Origin: a virus
Taxonomy: Duplodnaviria; Caudoviricetes
Virus record (IMG/VR): IMGVR_UViG_3300027896_002454
Location: 1-61,326 of that record
DNA length: 61,326 nucleotides
Strand: one strand, 5' to 3'
Shown: piece by piece, positions 1 through 35,437 of the stretch
Position numbering within the stretch: the first letter of the stretch is position 1
Layout of the letters: each line of letters opens with the position of its first letter
Translations under genes and position numbers: made by a program
Notes under the pieces: generated by a model
What the model saw: only the letters and a program-made list of their open reading frames with translations
What the model was told of the DNA's origin: nothing
Databases searched by the model: none

Positions 1-2628
1 TATATATGGAATGCCATCTTTACTTATAGCTTCTTTATAAAGTTTATAAGCTTCATATTTATCTTCTAAATCTTTGAATTTTTTAAAGCTTTCTTCAAAA
101 TTCTTTAAATTTTCTTCTCTAAGTTTTATTTCAGATTTCGTATTAATTAATTCTTCATTCTTCTTGTTTAATTTTTCGTTTACTATAGCTAATTTTTTAC
201 TATTTTCTTTTAAACTTTTAACATCTTCTATCTTGTCGTTAGCTTTTTCTTTCTTTTCTTTTAATTCTGCTAATCTAACATTATATAAAAATAAGTCATC
301 TTCTGCTTGTTTAAGTTTTATGTTTGCCATTTCAAACTCTTTTTTCAAAGAAAAATCAAACATTTTTATTTTTTCGTACTTTTGTAATTCTTCTCTTTTG
401 TTTCTTAAATCTTCTGGACTATTAGCATAATTTATTAATACATTTTCTAATTCATTTATTTGTTCTTTAGCGTCATTTAACTCAGATTTTATTGTTTTTG
501 CTTCTACAAAGAATTTACAATTTTGGCAAATTTCTGTAGTTTGCATCCATATTTGCTCGTCAAATGCATTTACAGCTTTGTCATCTCTATTTAATAAAGC
601 TTTTTTATCTGCTAACTCTACAAGAAGATTATGATAGTTTTCGACATTTTTTTCTAATTTTGATATTTCATTTAATATATTCTCTTTGTTGTATTTAGCT
701 AGCTCATTCGAAACAATTTCTAATTTATTAGTTTTATTTTGGATGTCACTAGAAATTGTCTGTATATTTAAAAATTCTATATCAATTCGTTCATTTACAG
801 CTTTAATTTCGTAATCATAATCTGTTAAATCTTCTTGATTAACTTTAGATTTTAATTCAATTATTTGATGTTCTAATATAGATTTTTCATCATTTACGAA
901 TTCAATATCAAAATTTAATTCTTTTAAAATATGATTTGCTGCTTTTAATTTTCTATCATTTTCTGCTATTTGTTTAGAAAAATCTAAATCTGCGTAAACT
1001 TTTAAAGCAGATTCTAATTCTTTAGCTTCCTCTTTAACTAAATTAAACATTGATTCAAAAACGTCTAAACCGAGAAATTTAGAAAATGTTTTAATTCTAT
1101 AAGATTCTCCAGTATTTTCTACAAAATTAGTAATTTTTCCTTGTAATCCAAAAGAAGTTAAAGTTAATTCTTCATAATTACCAAACATTCTTCGTATTAA
1201 TTTATCTGTATCTGTCTTTTGTTGTTCGTTTTCTGGATCTCCGTCAATTTCATAGAATCTTAAAGTTGTACTAGATGATTTCTTTTTCTTGTCTCCTCTT
1301 ATTACAGTCCTCTCTATTTTATATCTTTTGTCTCCTATAGAAATTACTACACTTCCAATACATTCAGACTCTTTATTGTTTACTACATTATAACTCTTCT
1401 TAAATTTACTATTTTTTCCAGTAATAATATGCAAAATAGAGTCTATTATACTACTTTTGCCAGTTCTGTTTGGCGCGAATATACCAACTATACCATTATA
1501 ATTTCTAAAATCTATTTTATTATTTAACCCATAAGAAAACATATTAGATATTTCTAATTCTTCTAAATTCCAAACTACATTTCTTAAAGAAATATCAGGT
1601 ACTTTCCAATACACTTCTTTATTTATGTCAATAATTTTTCTTATTATTTCGTCTTTTACTTTATCTTTTAAATGTTCGTTTAAAAGTTTTTCAATATTCT
1701 CTAATGTCGAAACATCTTCTAATCTAGATAAGGCATTATCTTTTTCTTCTTTTTCGTCTTTATGCTTTATAACTATTTCTTCTACATTATTCCATTTTTT
1801 TCTAATGTCTGCATAAACTTTTTGTATTTCAGAAACTGTAGGACTACTTAATATAACTCTAATTCTTGGTTTTTCATTTAATTCTATATTTGGTAACTCT
1901 TGATTATTTGATAGATCTATAGTATTATAAGTCCATTTGTTATGTATAATAATAAACTTGTTAGAAAAATTAGCTAAATTCCACAATAGATATCCTTTAT
2001 CTAAACTCTCACCATAATTTTGTTGGATAAGACTACCACAATAAAAAGCTTTTCCTATTTGTTGCCTTTTATGTATATCACCACATAATGCCAAATCATA
2101 ATTATCAAATATTCTTACATTATCATCTGGTGATTTTGATACTTGTTCATTTTCGTATACAGCTCCATTTAAAGAACCATGATATAAAGCTATATAATTT
2201 CTTAATTTATCTTTATCAAAATTAATTGGAAAATTTTCTCTATCAATTAAAGAAAATATACCAAAAGCTAATGACTCATCTATGTTTATAATACCACTAT
2301 TAGTATAGTAATGAATTCTTTTAGAATTTATATTTTTAACTATTGGAGTTAAAGCGTCTAATCTACTTTTATTTATAACAACTAAATCATGATTTCCAGG
2401 AATCATGTAAACCTCTGAATGTTCAGATAACATTTTTAAAAAATCAGAAGTTAAATCTACAGATTCTGGGCTTAATGATACTTTATTATGAACTACATCT
2501 CCACAAACTACTATAATATCTGGTTTATGTTCATGAAGTGAATCATTTAATTTAGAAAATATATATTTGTATTCTTCTTTTCGTTTAAATAAACGAATTT
2601 GAATATCTGCTAAATGCGCAATTATCAT
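1..2628 (-). CDS. Fused Mre11/SbcD nuclease - Rad50/SbcC ATPase (runs off window at position 1; absent from ORF track)
   Basis: Manual translation from ATG at 2628 (ATGA overlap with primase stop): MIIAHLADIQIR, CGDVVH, PGNHD, YHG, GDIH, YCGSLIQQNYGE (metallophosphoesterase), then in the same frame ISNMFSY, GIFAPNRTGKSS (Walker A), coiled coil and CQNC zinc-hook-like motif near 517-528. Confidence 0.9.
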   Translation of the reverse strand, partial: MIIAHLADIQIRLFKRKEEYKYIFSKLNDSLHEHKPDIIVVCGDVVHNKVSLSPESVDLTSDFLKMLSEHSEVYMIPGNHDLVVINKSRLDALTPIVKNINSKRIHYYTNSGIINIDESLAFGIFSLIDRENFPINFDKDKLRNYIALYHGSLNGAVYENEQVSKSPDDNVRIFDNYDLALCGDIHKRQQIGKAFYCGSLIQQNYGESLDKGYLLWNLANFSNKFIIIHNKWTYNTIDLSNNQELPNIELNEKPRIRVILSSPTVSEIQKVYADIRKKWNNVEEIVIKHKDEKEEKDNALSRLEDVSTLENIEKLLNEHLKDKVKDEIIRKIIDINKEVYWKVPDISLRNVVWNLEELEISNMFSYGLNNKIDFRNYNGIVGIFAPNRTGKSSIIDSILHIITGKNSKFKKSYNVVNNKESECIGSVVISIGDKRYKIERTVIRGDKKKKSSSTTLRFYEIDGDPENEQQKTDTDKLIRRMFGNYEELTLTSFGLQGKITNFVENTGESYRIKTFSKFLGLDVFESMFNLVKEEAKELESALKVYADLDFSKQIAENDRKLKAANHILKELNFDIEFVNDEKSILEHQIIELKSKVNQEDLTDYDYEIKAVNERIDIEFLNIQTISSDIQNKTNKLEIVSNELAKYNKENILNEISKLEKNVENYHNLLVELADKKALLNRDDKAVNAFDEQIWMQTTEICQNCKFFVEAKTIKSELNDAKEQINELENVLINYANSPEDLRNKREELQKYEKIKMFDFSLKKEFEMANIKLKQAEDDLFLYNVRLAELKEKKEKANDKIEDVKSLKENSKKLAIVNEKLNKKNEELINTKSEIKLREENLKNFEESFKKFKDLEDKYEAYKLYKEAISKDGIPYI

Positions 2629-32861: not shown

Positions 32862-33910
32862 TTATGCTAGGTCAGTTTCGTTTTTGATTTGATTAAATTG
32901 CCAATTTAAACGCAAGAACAATCTGTGCCAATCGTCCATCCGTTTTATTTGTGAATGTAAGCTATCTTTTAGGAATAAAATCATTAATTGTGAAGTAGAT
33001 AGCATAGGTTTTTGATTTATTAAAAGTGATTTAATTTTATCAACTGATTGTGAATTTATATTATGATTTCTTAATTGAACTAAATCGAAATTTCTTTCAA
33101 GAGTCTTTTTCGATTCTTCGGTGAGGAAAACTTGATATTTTTCTTCATCTTTGTGTTGCTCAGCGTAGTTTGTTAAATCTTCTAATGTATAAATATTATC
33201 TTCATTTAGAAAAGGAAACATTTTCACTAAAGTTTTTTCTCCGAGTCCTTTTTTTAATTTTGGGATTCCATCACTTGCATCACCAATTGCAGATTTAAGT
33301 AATGCATGATTTTTTGGATAAACAAAAGTTCTTTTTAATACTTCTTCTTTTGTTATGATCTCTTTTTTTACTGGTCTGTAAACTCTTGTTTTTTCATCTA
33401 TTAATTGATAATAATCTTTATCTGAACTAACAATAATTTTTTCATCATCTTTAAATAAATTGTTCGAAACATATGCTATAACATCATCTGCTTCTAAATT
33501 TTCAATTTCTAATTGATAAACTGGTAATATCGTAAAGTATTCTTTCGTTTTCAATAATTGAGTAACAAAATTTTGTTTTTCTTCTTCTGGAGTAGAAAAT
33601 TCAAATACTTTAGATAAAGAACCTCGTGTTTTTCTTCCCTCTTTATATTCTGCGAATACTTCTCTTCTCCGTTTTCCTGAATTTTTTCCTTCCCAGCACC
33701 AAATAACTACATTTGGATTAAATATTTCAACTAAATGTTTTATCGTTTGTAATACGCCAAATACTCCACCAAAAAATTCTCCATTGTCATTTACGACTCC
33801 AACAACAATAAAATTACGAATAAACTGATTTATAGACCGTCGATCAATAAAATCCTACGAACAGGTTTTATTGCGACGGTACTCTCCTTATGCTCGACTG
33901 CGTTATTCAT
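32862..33910 (-). CDS. 5'-3' exonuclease (FEN / T4 RNase H-like), interrupted by a frameshift and stop at 33830-33832
   Basis: ORF1 33830-33910 MNNAVEHKESTVAIKPVRRILLIDGL*; ORF2 frame continues NQFIRNF..GGVFG..WEGK..RR..EYKEGR..EADDVIAY..SSDKDYYQL..GDASDGIP..GLGEKT. Confidence 0.88.
33836..33880 (-). promoter_or_regulatory. 45-nt mRNA hairpin immediately 5' of the frameshift/stop site
   Basis: ACCGTCG-CAATAAAA-CCT-GTTCGT-AGG-A-TTTTATTG-AT-CGACGGT (18 bp). Confidence 0.75.
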
Positions 33911-34583
33911 TTATTTCCTTTTTAAATATCTTGTTTAGCAAAGCTTTATTTTTATTTATTATTTCGTCTATATCTCTACTATCTAATAATATTCTATAAA
34001 GTGTAAAATTATTTTTTGCTGCTATTTGTTCTTTTAATTCATCTACAATTTTAACTCCAGCTCGAGAATGCCAATACTCTCCATCACATTCTATAAGTGT
34101 GTTATTATACTTTCCATCATAATATTTATCATTTAAACAAAATTGTCTTTCTATCTTAACATTAAAAATGTTTTCTAATTTATTTAATAAATTGTCTTCT
34201 AACTTTGAAGATATTTTAAAATTTATTTTTCCATTACGCATTCTTTTTATTGCAGATTCACTCATTTTCTTTTTAGATTCTTCAGAATAAACTTGTAATT
34301 TTCTCTTCTCTCTCATCTTTTGCTTAGTTTCTTCACTATGTTTTTTACCATACATAGCATTATTTTTTCCACTAATCTTATCCTTTATCAAAAATAAAGC
34401 TTTTTTAACAGATTCACTATCTTTTCTTTTGTGCTCGTCTGTTAGAGTTATTCCAGTTTTCGTTTTCTTATTAACATAAGATATTACGCAACTTCTTGAG
34501 TGAAATCTTGTTCCTCTCTTTATTTGAGCTTCTGATAATTTTTCGCTGCAATATTCACAAAACTTTATAATTTGAGTTTCCAC
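33903..34583 (-). mobile_element. Free-standing NUMOD3 + Vsr/DUF559-like homing endonuclease
   Basis: CEYC, SGKNNAMYGKKHSEETK, RQF..YYDG..IECDGEYWHS; start taken at GTG after GAGGAAG. Confidence 0.8.
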
Positions 34584-34885
34584 TCTTCTTCCTCTTTTAA
34601 TCCATATTGCGCTTTTAATTTTACTATAGCTACTTTCCACATATCTGTAGTTATAGCAGTTGTAGAAAATAATCCTATTAAATCAGAAAGTTTTGGTCCA
34701 CCGATGTCTATCATTAATTTATCACATTGTTCTAGTGTGCTTTTTGATCCAATATGAACAATTTCATAAAATTTTTCTCTACATCGCTCATGCACTTCAT
34801 AGTGTTCAATGCTATGTTCAAAATAATATTGCAAATATTCATGGTTTCTAAACATCCTTTTGTTACATACGAAACATTTTTTCAT
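34565..34885 (-). CDS. Hypothetical zinc-binding protein
   Basis: CFVC..HERC. Confidence 0.6.
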   Translation of the reverse strand: MKKCFVCNKRMFRNHEYLQYYFEHSIEHYEVHERCREKFYEIVHIGSKSTLEQCDKLMIDIGGPKLSDLIGLFSTTAITTDMWKVAIVKLKAQYGLKEEEEWKLKL

Positions 34886-35437
34886 TTAATTATTCCATTT
34901 TATTTGAATTTTCTTTATAAGTTTAAAATATACTTCTTTCAAAAGTCTTGCATCTTCTAATGCTCCATGCTTTTGACTTCTAAGATTAGACATATTTAAT
35001 TTATCTAAACATTCGTCTAAACTAACTCTATCAAAATATTTAGCATCTCTAAACAAGTTTGCTAAAGTAACTGTATCTAAAAAATATTTAGGTTGATCTC
35101 TAACTCCGACTCCATGAGTAGATAAAAATGCTGACAAAAATGATCTATCAAAAGCTGCATTATGAGCATATATATTATCAGCATTTTTTAATATTCTATT
35201 TACTTCTAAAGCTATCTTATAAGGATTTCCAGCTTTGCTACCCCATTTACCGACATGATATCCATTAACTCTAGCAGCTTCTGGATTGATTCCTCTTGTA
35301 GCTTCCATGAAAAAATTATGTTCTTCTGTAATTTTTTCTGTTAAACTATCTGCTATTGCTATTCCTATTTCAATTACTTCGTCTCGTAAAAAATTAAGAC
35401 CTGTAGTCTCTATATCTACAAATGCTATCTTTGACAT
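34886..35437 (-). CDS. DEDDh 3'-5' exonuclease (DnaQ-like)
   Basis: FVDIETTGL, AHNAAFD, LDT, HGALEDA. Confidence 0.9.
   Translation of the reverse strand: MSKIAFVDIETTGLNFLRDEVIEIGIAIADSLTEKITEEHNFFMEATRGINPEAARVNGYHVGKWGSKAGNPYKIALEVNRILKNADNIYAHNAAFDRSFLSAFLSTHGVGVRDQPKYFLDTVTLANLFRDAKYFDRVSLDECLDKLNMSNLRSQKHGALEDARLLKEVYFKLIKKIQIKWNN

Follow-up and report, generated by a model that had tools for sequence, protein, structure and literature searches.

How a phage could make a functional exonuclease from a gene that is cut, at its catalytic motif, by a stop codon and a change of reading frame is the question raised by a locus in the IMG/VR viral record IMGVR_UViG_3300027896_002454. The window analysed here is that record at its full length of 61,326 bp (about 29% complete), and all window coordinates refer to its minus strand. 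The interrupted gene encodes a 5′-3′ exonuclease (FEN) and lies directly downstream of a free-standing homing endonuclease gene (HEG), with a strong RNA hairpin just 5′ of the stop. The locus is read here, at a probability of roughly 0.55 and by comparison of sequences, as the recoding core of a mobile cassette that is linked to the HEG and would bring about translational bypass (a "stop-hop") in a phage FEN gene.

A FEN gene divided between two reading frames

The N-terminus of the FEN lies in one frame (frame A), in a leader of 26 codons (33833-33910) recognised by its match to intact orthologues. The final codons of the HEG (ORF end 33903) overlap the ATG of the leader (33910-33908), and an AAGGA Shine-Dalgarno (SD) motif occurs 5 nt upstream of this ATG (33916-33920). 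The leader translates as MNNAVEHKESTVAIKPVRRILLIDGL, ending in RRILLIDGL with β-strand 1 and the first catalytic Asp of the fold, and is then closed by TAA at 33832-33830. The Asp of ILLIDG aligns with that of the LLVDG motif in the Taq polymerase 5′-nuclease (residues 11-27), and we take it to be a metal-binding catalytic carboxylate. The remainder of the protein is in frame B, which opens 3′ of a TAG at 33857-33855, 8 codons upstream, and runs for 330 codons to 32862, reading ..SINQFIRNF.. across the junction (..S-I-NQFIRNFIVVGVVNDNGEFFGG...). Its earliest ATG, GTG or TTG is a TTG at 33554, so that the first 92 codons are free of starts. The FEN body proper comprises 322 codons from the AAT at 33830-33828 (32865-33830, stop at 32864-32862), and the frame-B product is a FEN by its match to the N-terminal resolvase-like domain PF02739 (E 8.4e-25, 87.8 bits against a cut-off of 34.3, profile positions 12-162 of 164).

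The FEN motif, LLxDG followed by N-x-F/Y-x-R, is thus not continuous in the window, being divided between the two frames by the TAA and 2 nt. It is unbroken in the close relative L084 and in the orthologues P0003 and P0005-8; orthologues at 60-68% identity carry a continuous R[RK]ILLIDG[LM]N[QN]FIR[NS]F. Because these intact genes read straight through the motif, the surplus in the window can be fixed at exactly 2 nt between the Leu and Asn codons. Comparison with L084 assigns it to the first two bases of the TAA (33832-33831), the last A of which begins the resume codon. The Leu codon CTA (33833-33835) is the proposed take-off codon, a Leu codon also preceding the stop in the four interrupted relatives described below, and the TAA (33830-33832) is the proposed A-site codon.

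This arrangement agrees with the original prediction, made from the letters of the DNA without database searches. The hairpin, stop and 2-nt insertion that it placed beside a homing endonuclease in a 5′-3′ exonuclease gene are exact to the base, and the family motif and 322 further codons that it expected beyond the skipped nucleotides are borne out by the PF02739 match and by the intact orthologues. The TAG about 8 codons upstream and the absence of a start for about 90 codons in the second frame were likewise found, the first start being the TTG noted above.

Intact and interrupted alleles in related phages

The closest intact relative, the groundwater contig L084, has a FEN that is 95% identical to that of the window in amino acids and reads MEQLKEIKQPRRILILDGMNQFIRNF... 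without a break. It lacks the HEG, the adjoining ORF106 and the hairpin (-6.8 kcal/mol, z -0.3), and the start codon of its FEN falls within the final codons of the DnaQ-like gene. From the Asn codon on, the nucleotide sequences of the two FEN genes have high identity; 5′ of it the identity is poor. A different endonuclease-like ORF of 245 codons (L084:2981-3718, plus strand) is located between the FEN and DnaB-like helicase genes of L084, which abut in the window; queries with the HEGs of the window, L004 and L003 did not match it at 1e-5.

The IMG/VR contig L004 (65% identity) has the same layout as the window, including an HEG that overlaps the leader ATG. Its leader of 26 codons, MTLIVNEGEKTITTRKSRNILLIDGL, is followed by TGA, and the FEN body continues in the same shifted frame as that of the window. 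The gap is 11 nt and has a Leu codon at its end (GGT CTT TGA AGA AG CTG AAT), and a GAAGGAG motif and a hairpin of -22.7 kcal/mol (z -4.6) occupy positions equivalent to those in the window. The ILLIDGL codons of the two phages differ by five synonymous and no non-synonymous changes, and changes in the stem are compensated in its 5′ arm.

In a first set of 74 FEN loci, 70 are intact with the spacing D-G-x-N and four are broken, all at one codon: L004, L076 (GGC CTT TGA CTA AAC), L003 (GGC CTT TGA CTC AAC) and L085 (AGC CTG TAG CTC AAT), the last three remaining in frame. In each of these three an SD-like motif accompanies a hairpin with a folding energy between -25 and -31 kcal/mol (z from -3.9 to -7.0). 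A Leu codon stands directly 5′ of the Asn in all four (CUG in L004). The FEN body of L041 is 98% identical to that of L076, yet its gene is intact and has neither hairpin nor SD-like motif. A second set of loci contained 78 intact genes among 80, the other two being duplicates of known broken ones, with none new. The D-G-x-N spacing is therefore kept in every uninterrupted locus (70 of 74, 78 of 80, and 12 of 12 in a third group), the six exceptions being the four broken genes, two of which were fetched twice. Because this spacing is invariant, readthrough (two extra residues) or frame-keeping shifts (one to four) would give unnatural proteins.

The FEN body of the window differs from that of intact L084 with a dN/dS of 0.048 (dS 0.72), and L076 from L041 with a dN/dS of 0.024 (dS 0.56); no second stop or indel was seen in any cassette-bearing body. 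Judged by these ratios, the FEN body is under purifying selection, and such selection on both sides of the gap lends indirect support to a single polypeptide that spans it.

Further searches bounded this set. A DNA-level search of GenBank phages with the stretch gave no match, and tblastn returned 102 GenBank phage records, all below 60% identity. GTDB genomes, searched for close relatives of P0001, yielded 61 loci, all at or below 37-39% identity. A first, narrow DNA pattern found seven stretches, one of them real (the L004 contig) and six due to chance. A heuristic scan of 325 loci (1.87 Mb) for a Leu-stop pair with a hairpin and a long ORF produced 77 candidates, among which the full signature was confined to five FEN cassettes; the remainder were rejected as out-of-frame noise. 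The protein P0126, which starts MNLFIRNF, was considered as a possible Met-stop-Met case, and this is unsupported, since all 12 of its relatives are intact (its own contig is not in IMG/VR).

A family of stop-interrupted FEN genes in IMG/VR

The in-frame form of the interruption was generalised as the pattern D-G-L-TRR-L-N-x-F/Y-x-R, in which the CTN-stop-CTN Leu codons are fixed and TGG is allowed at the stop position. Scanned over IMG/VR, it matched 81 stretches; 80 matches were recovered, and in 80 of 80 the middle codon is a true stop, with no TGG. All 80 continue as FEN-like LNx[F/Y]xR; in loci that are long enough the ORF spans 237-327 codons, and each of ten sampled downstream ORFs matches PF02739, starting at profile positions 10-23. 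The matches represent 51 unique cassettes, or 36 clusters at 90% or higher amino acid identity. Over these clusters the stop is TAG in 16, TGA in 11 and TAA in nine. The take-off codon is CTT in 30, CTC in three and CTG in three, and the landing codon CTC in 13, CTT in nine, CTA in seven and CTG in seven.

Automated gene calls for cassette-bearing FENs (P0002, P0004, P0022, P0001, P0009) start at the first downstream ATG, GTG or TTG, and 0-100 N-terminal residues are lost as a result. P0001 (79% identity) and P0009 (85%), both called N-truncated, are the closest broken-looking relatives of the window. The FEN locus is thus systematically mis-annotated in phages, such genes being shortened or overlooked by gene callers, for example in P0002, P0004 and P0022 and probably in P0001 and P0009.

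The hairpin and the Shine-Dalgarno-like motif

The 5′ hairpin of the window (33834-33883), proposed as the driver of the bypass and characterised by folding, pair tables and covariation, has a 3′ arm that is itself the coding sequence for RRILLIDG. Its core (33880-33836) consists of 7, 8 and 4 bp topped by a UUCG loop (33861-33858) closed by a G-U pair, and the minimum free energy (MFE) fold adds 2 bp that pair the CU of the CTA take-off codon. The predicted stability is -20.8 kcal/mol (z -3.83; equalled by one of 200 shuffles), with a z of -2.31 in a 126-nt context. At the 5′ foot of the hairpin lies an internal SD-like AAGGAG (33884-33889).

Both elements recur through the family. When the 66 nt up to the end of the take-off codon are folded, the median is -25.6 kcal/mol for 46 unique cassette segments, every one at or below -18.1, against -9.6 for 95 unique intact segments (Mann-Whitney p 1.6e-20). 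The 3′ arm of cassette hairpins encodes (V/I)LIVDG. In the 7-bp lower stem of the five first-found cassettes all 35 of 35 cells are paired and four of the seven pairs show compensatory change; the covariation score was matched by one of 500 shuffles, and slid registers collapse. A table of 46 sequences, anchored on the 3′ arm, was built from the MFE fold of each one. Its pairs are bound to be canonical for that reason, and the information lies solely in the variety of pair types at synonymous sites; three to six types occur at each of the third-codon positions -1, -4, -7, -10 and -13. These varying positions belong to the Gly, Asp, Ile/Val and Leu codons. G-U pairs are common, which places the structure in the sense RNA and not in DNA. 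A MAFFT alignment of 37 cassettes put the 5′ arms in differing columns and was excluded from the pair counts.

Of 39 cassette lineages, 22 have an SD-like 5-mer no more than 18 nt 5′ of the core stem, against 76 of 1795 background windows from the same genes (4.2%), an enrichment with an odds ratio of 29 (p 2e-19), and its spacing is mostly 3-5 nt. Counted manually with the stem collapsed, the distance from the motif to the landing codon is about 5 in the window, 8 in L076, L003 and L004, and 11 in L085. At the level of sequence, the hairpin and the SD-like motif are selected features.

Association with a homing endonuclease

The free-standing HEG of the window (33903-34640, 245 codons) combines NUMOD3 repeats (PF07460, E 2e-11, 44 bits against a cut-off of 20.4) with a C-terminal module containing ..IECDGEYWH... 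This module matches REase_MTES_1575 (PF18741) with an E of 0.056 in the window and 3.4e-7 (30.7 bits) in L003, both below the cut-off of 38.2; matches to PHROG "homing endonuclease" families range from 1e-3 to 1e-10, being about 1e-3 for the window, and the ExDGxYWH/EFNGTYWH motif of these HEGs was read by eye. The nuclease module may, on this weak similarity, be of the Vsr or REase_MTES_1575 kind. The window HEG is homologous to those of L004 (E 1e-10, 29% identity) and L003 (9e-7); in a protein scan, the HEG gave distant NUMOD3-type matches only. The L003 HEG, of 341 codons and of the same family, also overlaps the leader ATG, and L076 has no HEG.

Local tblastn detected the HEG family upstream of the cassette in nine of the 36 scan clusters (E < 1e-18, including L411, which is L003), with one further weak match, and two of the 36 have less than 500 nt of upstream sequence. 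In the nine, the HEG ends 53-148 nt before the take-off codon. Among the 175 FEN loci of the protein scan, the family occurs upstream only in L004 and L003 (the latter fetched twice), both broken. It was found directly upstream of none of about 170 intact loci, two of which have a partial match more than 2 kb downstream. The earlier expectation that the insertion travels with the endonuclease, as a recoding cassette like that of T4 gene 60 and mobA, is supported in that, among the loci scanned, the HEG stands upstream only of broken genes and the HEG-less L084 and L041 are intact and lack the hairpin. The same break with a covarying hairpin, which had been suggested as something to look for in related phages, was seen in four relatives and 80 further IMG/VR contigs.

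Cassettes without the HEG retain the native long N-terminus, whereas those that bear it have a short new leader, a difference that corresponds to what is called "hit and run" for mobA and gene 60 in the available literature text. Upstream of the L085 cassette is an endonuclease remnant (L085:127-240, plus strand) with an in-frame TAG (..GYGIFVI*QHDWDLL..), which could be due to decay of the HEG or to sequencing error, the contig being 2,253 nt long with a named coverage of 2.

A proposed mechanism

In the model favoured here, a cassette made up of a Vsr-like/NUMOD3 HEG, a short leader with its own start, an SD-like motif, a hairpin, and a Leu codon followed by a stop and a gap would have replaced the 5′ end of a phage FEN gene at the catalytic LLIDG|LN codons. 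Ribosomes translating the leader would melt the hairpin and then stall when peptidyl-tRNA(Leu) is paired to CUA and the A site contains the stop. The GC-rich lower stem could then re-zip behind the ribosome and pull the mRNA forward, its last pairs competing with the anticodon for the take-off codon. That tRNA would re-pair downstream and decoding would resume at Asn, with one Leu inserted, to give ...ILLIDGLNQFIR... In the common form, CUN-stop-CUN, 9 nt would specify a single Leu by a +6 stop-hop; in L004 the hop would be +11, onto CUG, and in the window +2, onto AUA, with two of the three anticodon positions matched. Since the stem of the window takes up exactly the C and the U, AUA would be left in the P site, which is the +2 register.

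After the stem forms again, the SD-like motif may base-pair with the anti-SD, by which the landing register would be set; the roles of both hairpin and motif are inferred with the gene 60 literature as a guide. The gap probably disrupts the target site of the HEG and would protect the carrier, by analogy with mobA and gene 60. That the cassette family represents programmed bypass is likely. For the window's own copy, decoding by a +2 move is an even bet, and the chances are similarly balanced for the wider picture of widespread, HEG-borne minimal bypass modules in phage FEN genes, driven by a hairpin of roughly 20 bp that would strip the take-off codon as it re-zips, with an SD-like motif bridged over the stem to set the register in many lineages and with the window as a hairpin-measured +2 slide that lacks a landing codon.

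Alternatives and points of doubt

Bypassing is favoured because it accounts for gap lengths of 2, 6 and 11 nt together with the use of all three stops, the Leu before the resume codon and the invariant D-G-x-N spacing. Readthrough of the stop by a near-cognate or suppressor tRNA in the in-frame members, yielding DGL-X-LN, or a -1 frameshift in the window and L004, yielding ILLIDGLINQFIR in the window, would instead add one to four residues after DGL. Both the window and L004 are indeed in the -1/+2 frame, and UGA-C and UAG-C are leaky contexts in Escherichia coli, but the extra residues would disturb a spacing that holds in all 160 uninterrupted loci. All three stops are used, TGG is absent at the stop position in 80 of 80 matches, and under readthrough the Leu after the stop in L004, L076, L003 and L085 would be purposeless (in the scan matches it is specified by the pattern). 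The site in the window, C GGU CUA U, is not an X XXY YYZ slippery heptamer, UCU would be a poor match for re-pairing by tRNA-Leu, and the structure lies 5′, whereas known stimulators of readthrough and -1 shifting lie 3′ of the site. The -1 shift that the original prediction had offered beside a +2 slide is accordingly disfavoured, and this class of explanation as a whole is very improbable. A suppressor tRNA was rejected, no tRNA gene having been found in the window, which is about 29% complete as a record; transcriptional slippage was rejected for want of a homopolymer run at the site, and an alternative genetic code because all three stops occur across the lineages and the downstream ORFs are otherwise open. 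Termination followed by reinitiation, or initiation by an SD bridged across the hairpin, at AUA in the window or UUG in L004, would make a FEN without its first Asp or a two-piece enzyme. The AAGGAG at the 5′ foot of the hairpin and the AUA/UUG at its 3′ foot would be about 5-8 nt apart with the stem collapsed, the AUAA and UUGA overlaps resemble coupled stop-start sites, and hairpin-bridged SDs are known from T4 genes 25 and 38. HEG insertions are also described, in the source text available, as splitting genes whose pieces reassemble. It is nevertheless improbable, as AUA is a very poor initiator and L076, L003 and L085 have no in-frame ATG, GTG or TTG at the stop or the landing Leu (an ATG in L085 comes two codons on, inside N-M-Y-I-R). 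Hairpin-bridged initiation, another of the alternatives raised at the outset, is thus not general. The landing codon is CTN in all 36 clusters (as fixed by the search pattern), and the ILLIDGL codons of the leader, with their five synonymous and no non-synonymous differences, are under purifying selection and supply the catalytic Asp. An N-truncated enzyme would probably be inactive, and a 26-residue fragment acting in trans is unprecedented for the FEN fold.

It may also be that the family bypasses and that the window copy is dead, through a 4-nt deletion in an ancestral CTA-TAA-CTN-AAT, and makes no FEN or a trace of it. The window is a single metagenomic contig at a depth of about 10, and its low dN/dS relative to L084 could predate such a deletion. 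Its 322-codon body has nevertheless acquired no stop or indel despite a dS of 0.72, there is no damage to the hairpin, the SD-like motif, the start of the leader or the HEG ORF, and the CU is captured exactly by the final 2 bp of the stem, in keeping with the +2 register. L004 is an instance of an out-of-frame gap tolerated in the clade, and no second FEN was found in the 61-kb window, leaving the split gene as the sole one in a record about 29% complete. A dead copy is therefore unlikely, though it deserves to be taken seriously. Error, in the form of two false bases in an intact gene, can be given next to no weight. A Logan assembly of run X1 contains a 6565-nt contig, at a depth of about 10, that is identical to the window over 33183-34700 (0 differences, 0 gaps). 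An assembler artefact is ruled out by it, and the assembly error given as the last alternative of the original prediction is disfavoured. The break moreover coincides with a stop, hairpin, SD-like motif, new leader and HEG, all of which recur in 39 other lineages, and the HEG-less relative L084 has none of them. A second run, X2, contains a small share of the window only, and its two short contigs map elsewhere in the window.

Several observations weigh against bypass, in the family or in the window. The SD-like motif is missing from 17 of 39 lineages and so is not essential. Among 40 lineages the window alone lacks a landing Leu codon, and its +2 triplet, AUA, matches the anticodon at two of three positions, the mismatch being at codon position 1. 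A control pattern for the 2-nt form, of similar information content, matched 44 IMG/VR stretches and no FEN gene; no second 2-nt allele was thus found in IMG/VR, and the window may be a nonfunctional, recent derivative by 4-nt deletion. With CUA in the P site most of the 3′ arm would be inside the ribosome, so the proposed drive would need progressive re-zipping. Readthrough of the in-frame members is compatible with their sequence taken alone. X1, which alone among public runs contains every sampled word of the stretch, probably represents the source sample, which makes its contig a second assembly and not an independent sample, and no RNA runs containing the stretch are listed among public runs. 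Finally, two intact alleles, L276 (-22.6 kcal/mol) and L307 (-21.8 kcal/mol), have a comparable hairpin and no gap. Intact frames in hairpin-bearing relatives had been named in advance as evidence against recoding; the cassettes are broken where the hairpin is present, as expected, and these two genes are not. In both (L276:~2435-2500 and L307:~2435-2500, plus strand) the hairpin ends on the Leu codon and the motif runs on without a stop-Leu insert (..VLVIDGLNTF.. and ..ILILDGLNTF..); in L276, GAAGGAAA is found upstream as well. The two alleles may represent healed cassettes; alternatively, the hairpin could serve some other purpose or persist after the gap is lost.

Gene neighbourhood

The window has a G+C content of 27%, and all 57 of its 57 ORFs of at least 120 aa are on the minus strand; in 17 of these 57, a 4-5-mer SD core precedes the first ATG, and AAGGAG occurs 15 times on the coding strand. 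The minus-strand order around the locus is a RecA/UvsX-like gene, a small ORF, a DnaQ-like exonuclease gene, ORF106, the HEG, the split FEN locus and a DnaB-like helicase gene. The DnaQ-like 3′-5′ exonuclease gene on the left flank (34886-35437) matches RNase_T (PF00929, E 6.6e-17). ORF106 (34565-34885, 106 codons), taken from the ORF list and without an assigned function, had no match in Pfam or PHROG. Its N-terminus is rich in Cys and His (CFVCNKRMFRNHEY..HSIEHYEVHERC), and about 75 nt of it are shared, in a different frame, with the HEG ORF; the idea that it is a frameshifted HEG N-terminus was rejected, as it has no similarity to the L003 HEG.

Two relatives show further features in this region. 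The DnaB-like helicase of L004 (L004:3948-6056, plus strand) has 702 aa, against 454 aa in the window, and appears by eye to contain an intein-like insert (..TA|CFHGDTEI...HNYALSCGIIVKN|SQTNRGG) with an HNH-type motif (HHIDHDKTNDHPDNL), which would be another mobile element in the replication module. In L076, a GC-rich, terminator-like hairpin (ACACCCGAGTTCTTCGGGTGT followed by a T-run) is located between the RecA-like gene and the FEN leader (L076:2857-2937, plus strand).

Relation to known recoding systems

The nearest counterpart is the gene 60/mobA system (Huang 1988; Bonocora 2011; Manning & Atkins 2022 preprint). As described in the parts of these sources available, a stop follows the take-off codon of gene 60 and is required in the A site, forward pseudo-translocation is driven by a 5′ stem-loop that forms on mRNA leaving the ribosome, the ribosome is held back, and its landing aided, by an SD located six bases 5′ of the landing codon, and the gap protects against MobA. 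Efficient programmed bypassing in bacteria has, in the same texts, so far been limited to topoisomerase genes, in the form of the gene 60/mobA cassette and homologues of it; the accessible text of the preprint finds gene 60-type cassettes only in such genes, calls the cassette unique and names VSR-type nucleases as alternative mobilisers (Manning & Atkins 2022 preprint). The likeness to these accounts lies in the free-standing HEG immediately upstream, the new short N-terminal piece, and the take-off codon, stop and gap within a catalytic motif of a DNA-metabolism enzyme, as well as in the SD-like element, the persistence of cassettes after loss of the HEG and the uninterrupted state of HEG-less alleles. 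The 5′ side of the UUCG loop in the window is 26 nt away from the take-off codon, a distance equal to that given for the gene 60 5′ stem-loop in the available text of Wills et al.

There are also differences. The host gene is a FEN and not the large subunit of topoisomerase II, the gap is 2-11 nt and not 50, and the tRNA is that for Leu and not Gly. No take-off stem-loop encloses the take-off codon, which instead forms the end of the 3′ arm in the 5′ hairpin; the SD-like motif is 5′ of the hairpin, whereas in gene 60 it is within the gap. The leader of HEG-bearing cassettes (18-27 residues) is too short for a KKYK-type tunnel signal 25-30 residues back; leaders differ widely 5′ of (R/K)xILLIDGL, and basic residues before the motif are found in intact orthologues as well. 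The FEN is not split into two polypeptides, and no homology to the gene 60 cassette was seen, none having been looked for. By analogy, the two systems would be alike in working without sharing target, gap, tRNA or stem geometry.

The in-frame members resemble the synthetic stop-hops of E. coli, in which, according to the portions of the sources available, 9 nt are decoded as one residue at a low level (Weiss, Dunn, Atkins & Gesteland 1987, via PMC5009743, 10.1101/2024.12.09.627546). Natural stop-hops were unknown in the available text of Atkins et al. 2016, though counterparts had "long been presumed". Shared with the synthetic cases, as far as these texts describe them, are matched codons around the stop and a slow-to-decode stop in the A site. 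Those were engineered and unstimulated, whereas the present ones are natural, occur in at least 39 lineages in a gene that is likely essential, and would have dedicated stimulators. Leu codons are reportedly among the original stop-hop examples.

A candidate bypass of 10-nt UUA inserts in the terminase of Streptomyces phage Hau3 is, in the text available, unproven and known from a handful of cases (PMC10732093). It too has a short, frame-disrupting insert in an essential phage gene, with a 5′ stem-loop, a flanking Shine-Dalgarno and flanks that are contiguous in relatives; according to that text the trigger there is a hungry UUA codon and not a stop, a regulatory role is proposed and there is no HEG. 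In the +1 frameshift of prfB (RF2), tRNA-Leu slips at a poorly terminating stop in the site CUU UGA C, aided by an upstream SD. L076 and L003 read CUU UGA CU. In the cassettes, however, the +1 frame is closed, after five codons in the window (AAA UCA GUU UAU UCG UAA) and within 1-11 codons in L076 and L004, the SD and the site are set apart by a hairpin of 45 nt, and the outcome would be +2, +6 or +11. The byps of Magnusiomyces capitatus mitochondria, described in the available text as mobile inserts of 27-55 nt with an unused sense codon in the A site, are similar in that bypassing makes short mobile inserts harmless and in that two-of-three matches between take-off and landing codons are tolerated, as the window would need. 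They differ in being mitochondrial, without a link to an HEG or a conserved 5′ hairpin. No description of bypass in a phage exonuclease was found in open-access full texts, a search that did not extend to the supplementary tables of Manning & Atkins.

Implications

If the proposed reading is right, these cassettes would be the first natural stop-hops and a second, independent symbiosis between an HEG and translational bypass, beside that of gene 60 and mobA. They would provide a portable, 60-nt model for ribosome sliding, including a module that functions without a landing codon. The at least 39 diverged variants, with three stops, several Leu pairs, gaps of 2, 6 and 11 nt, and SD-like motifs present or absent, would amount to a ready mutational series, which would serve for testing the model that pairing of the exiting mRNA drives forward sliding. 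For the phages themselves, the cassettes would mean that a selfish nuclease shields its own target site at the cost of recoding the active-site motif of an enzyme.

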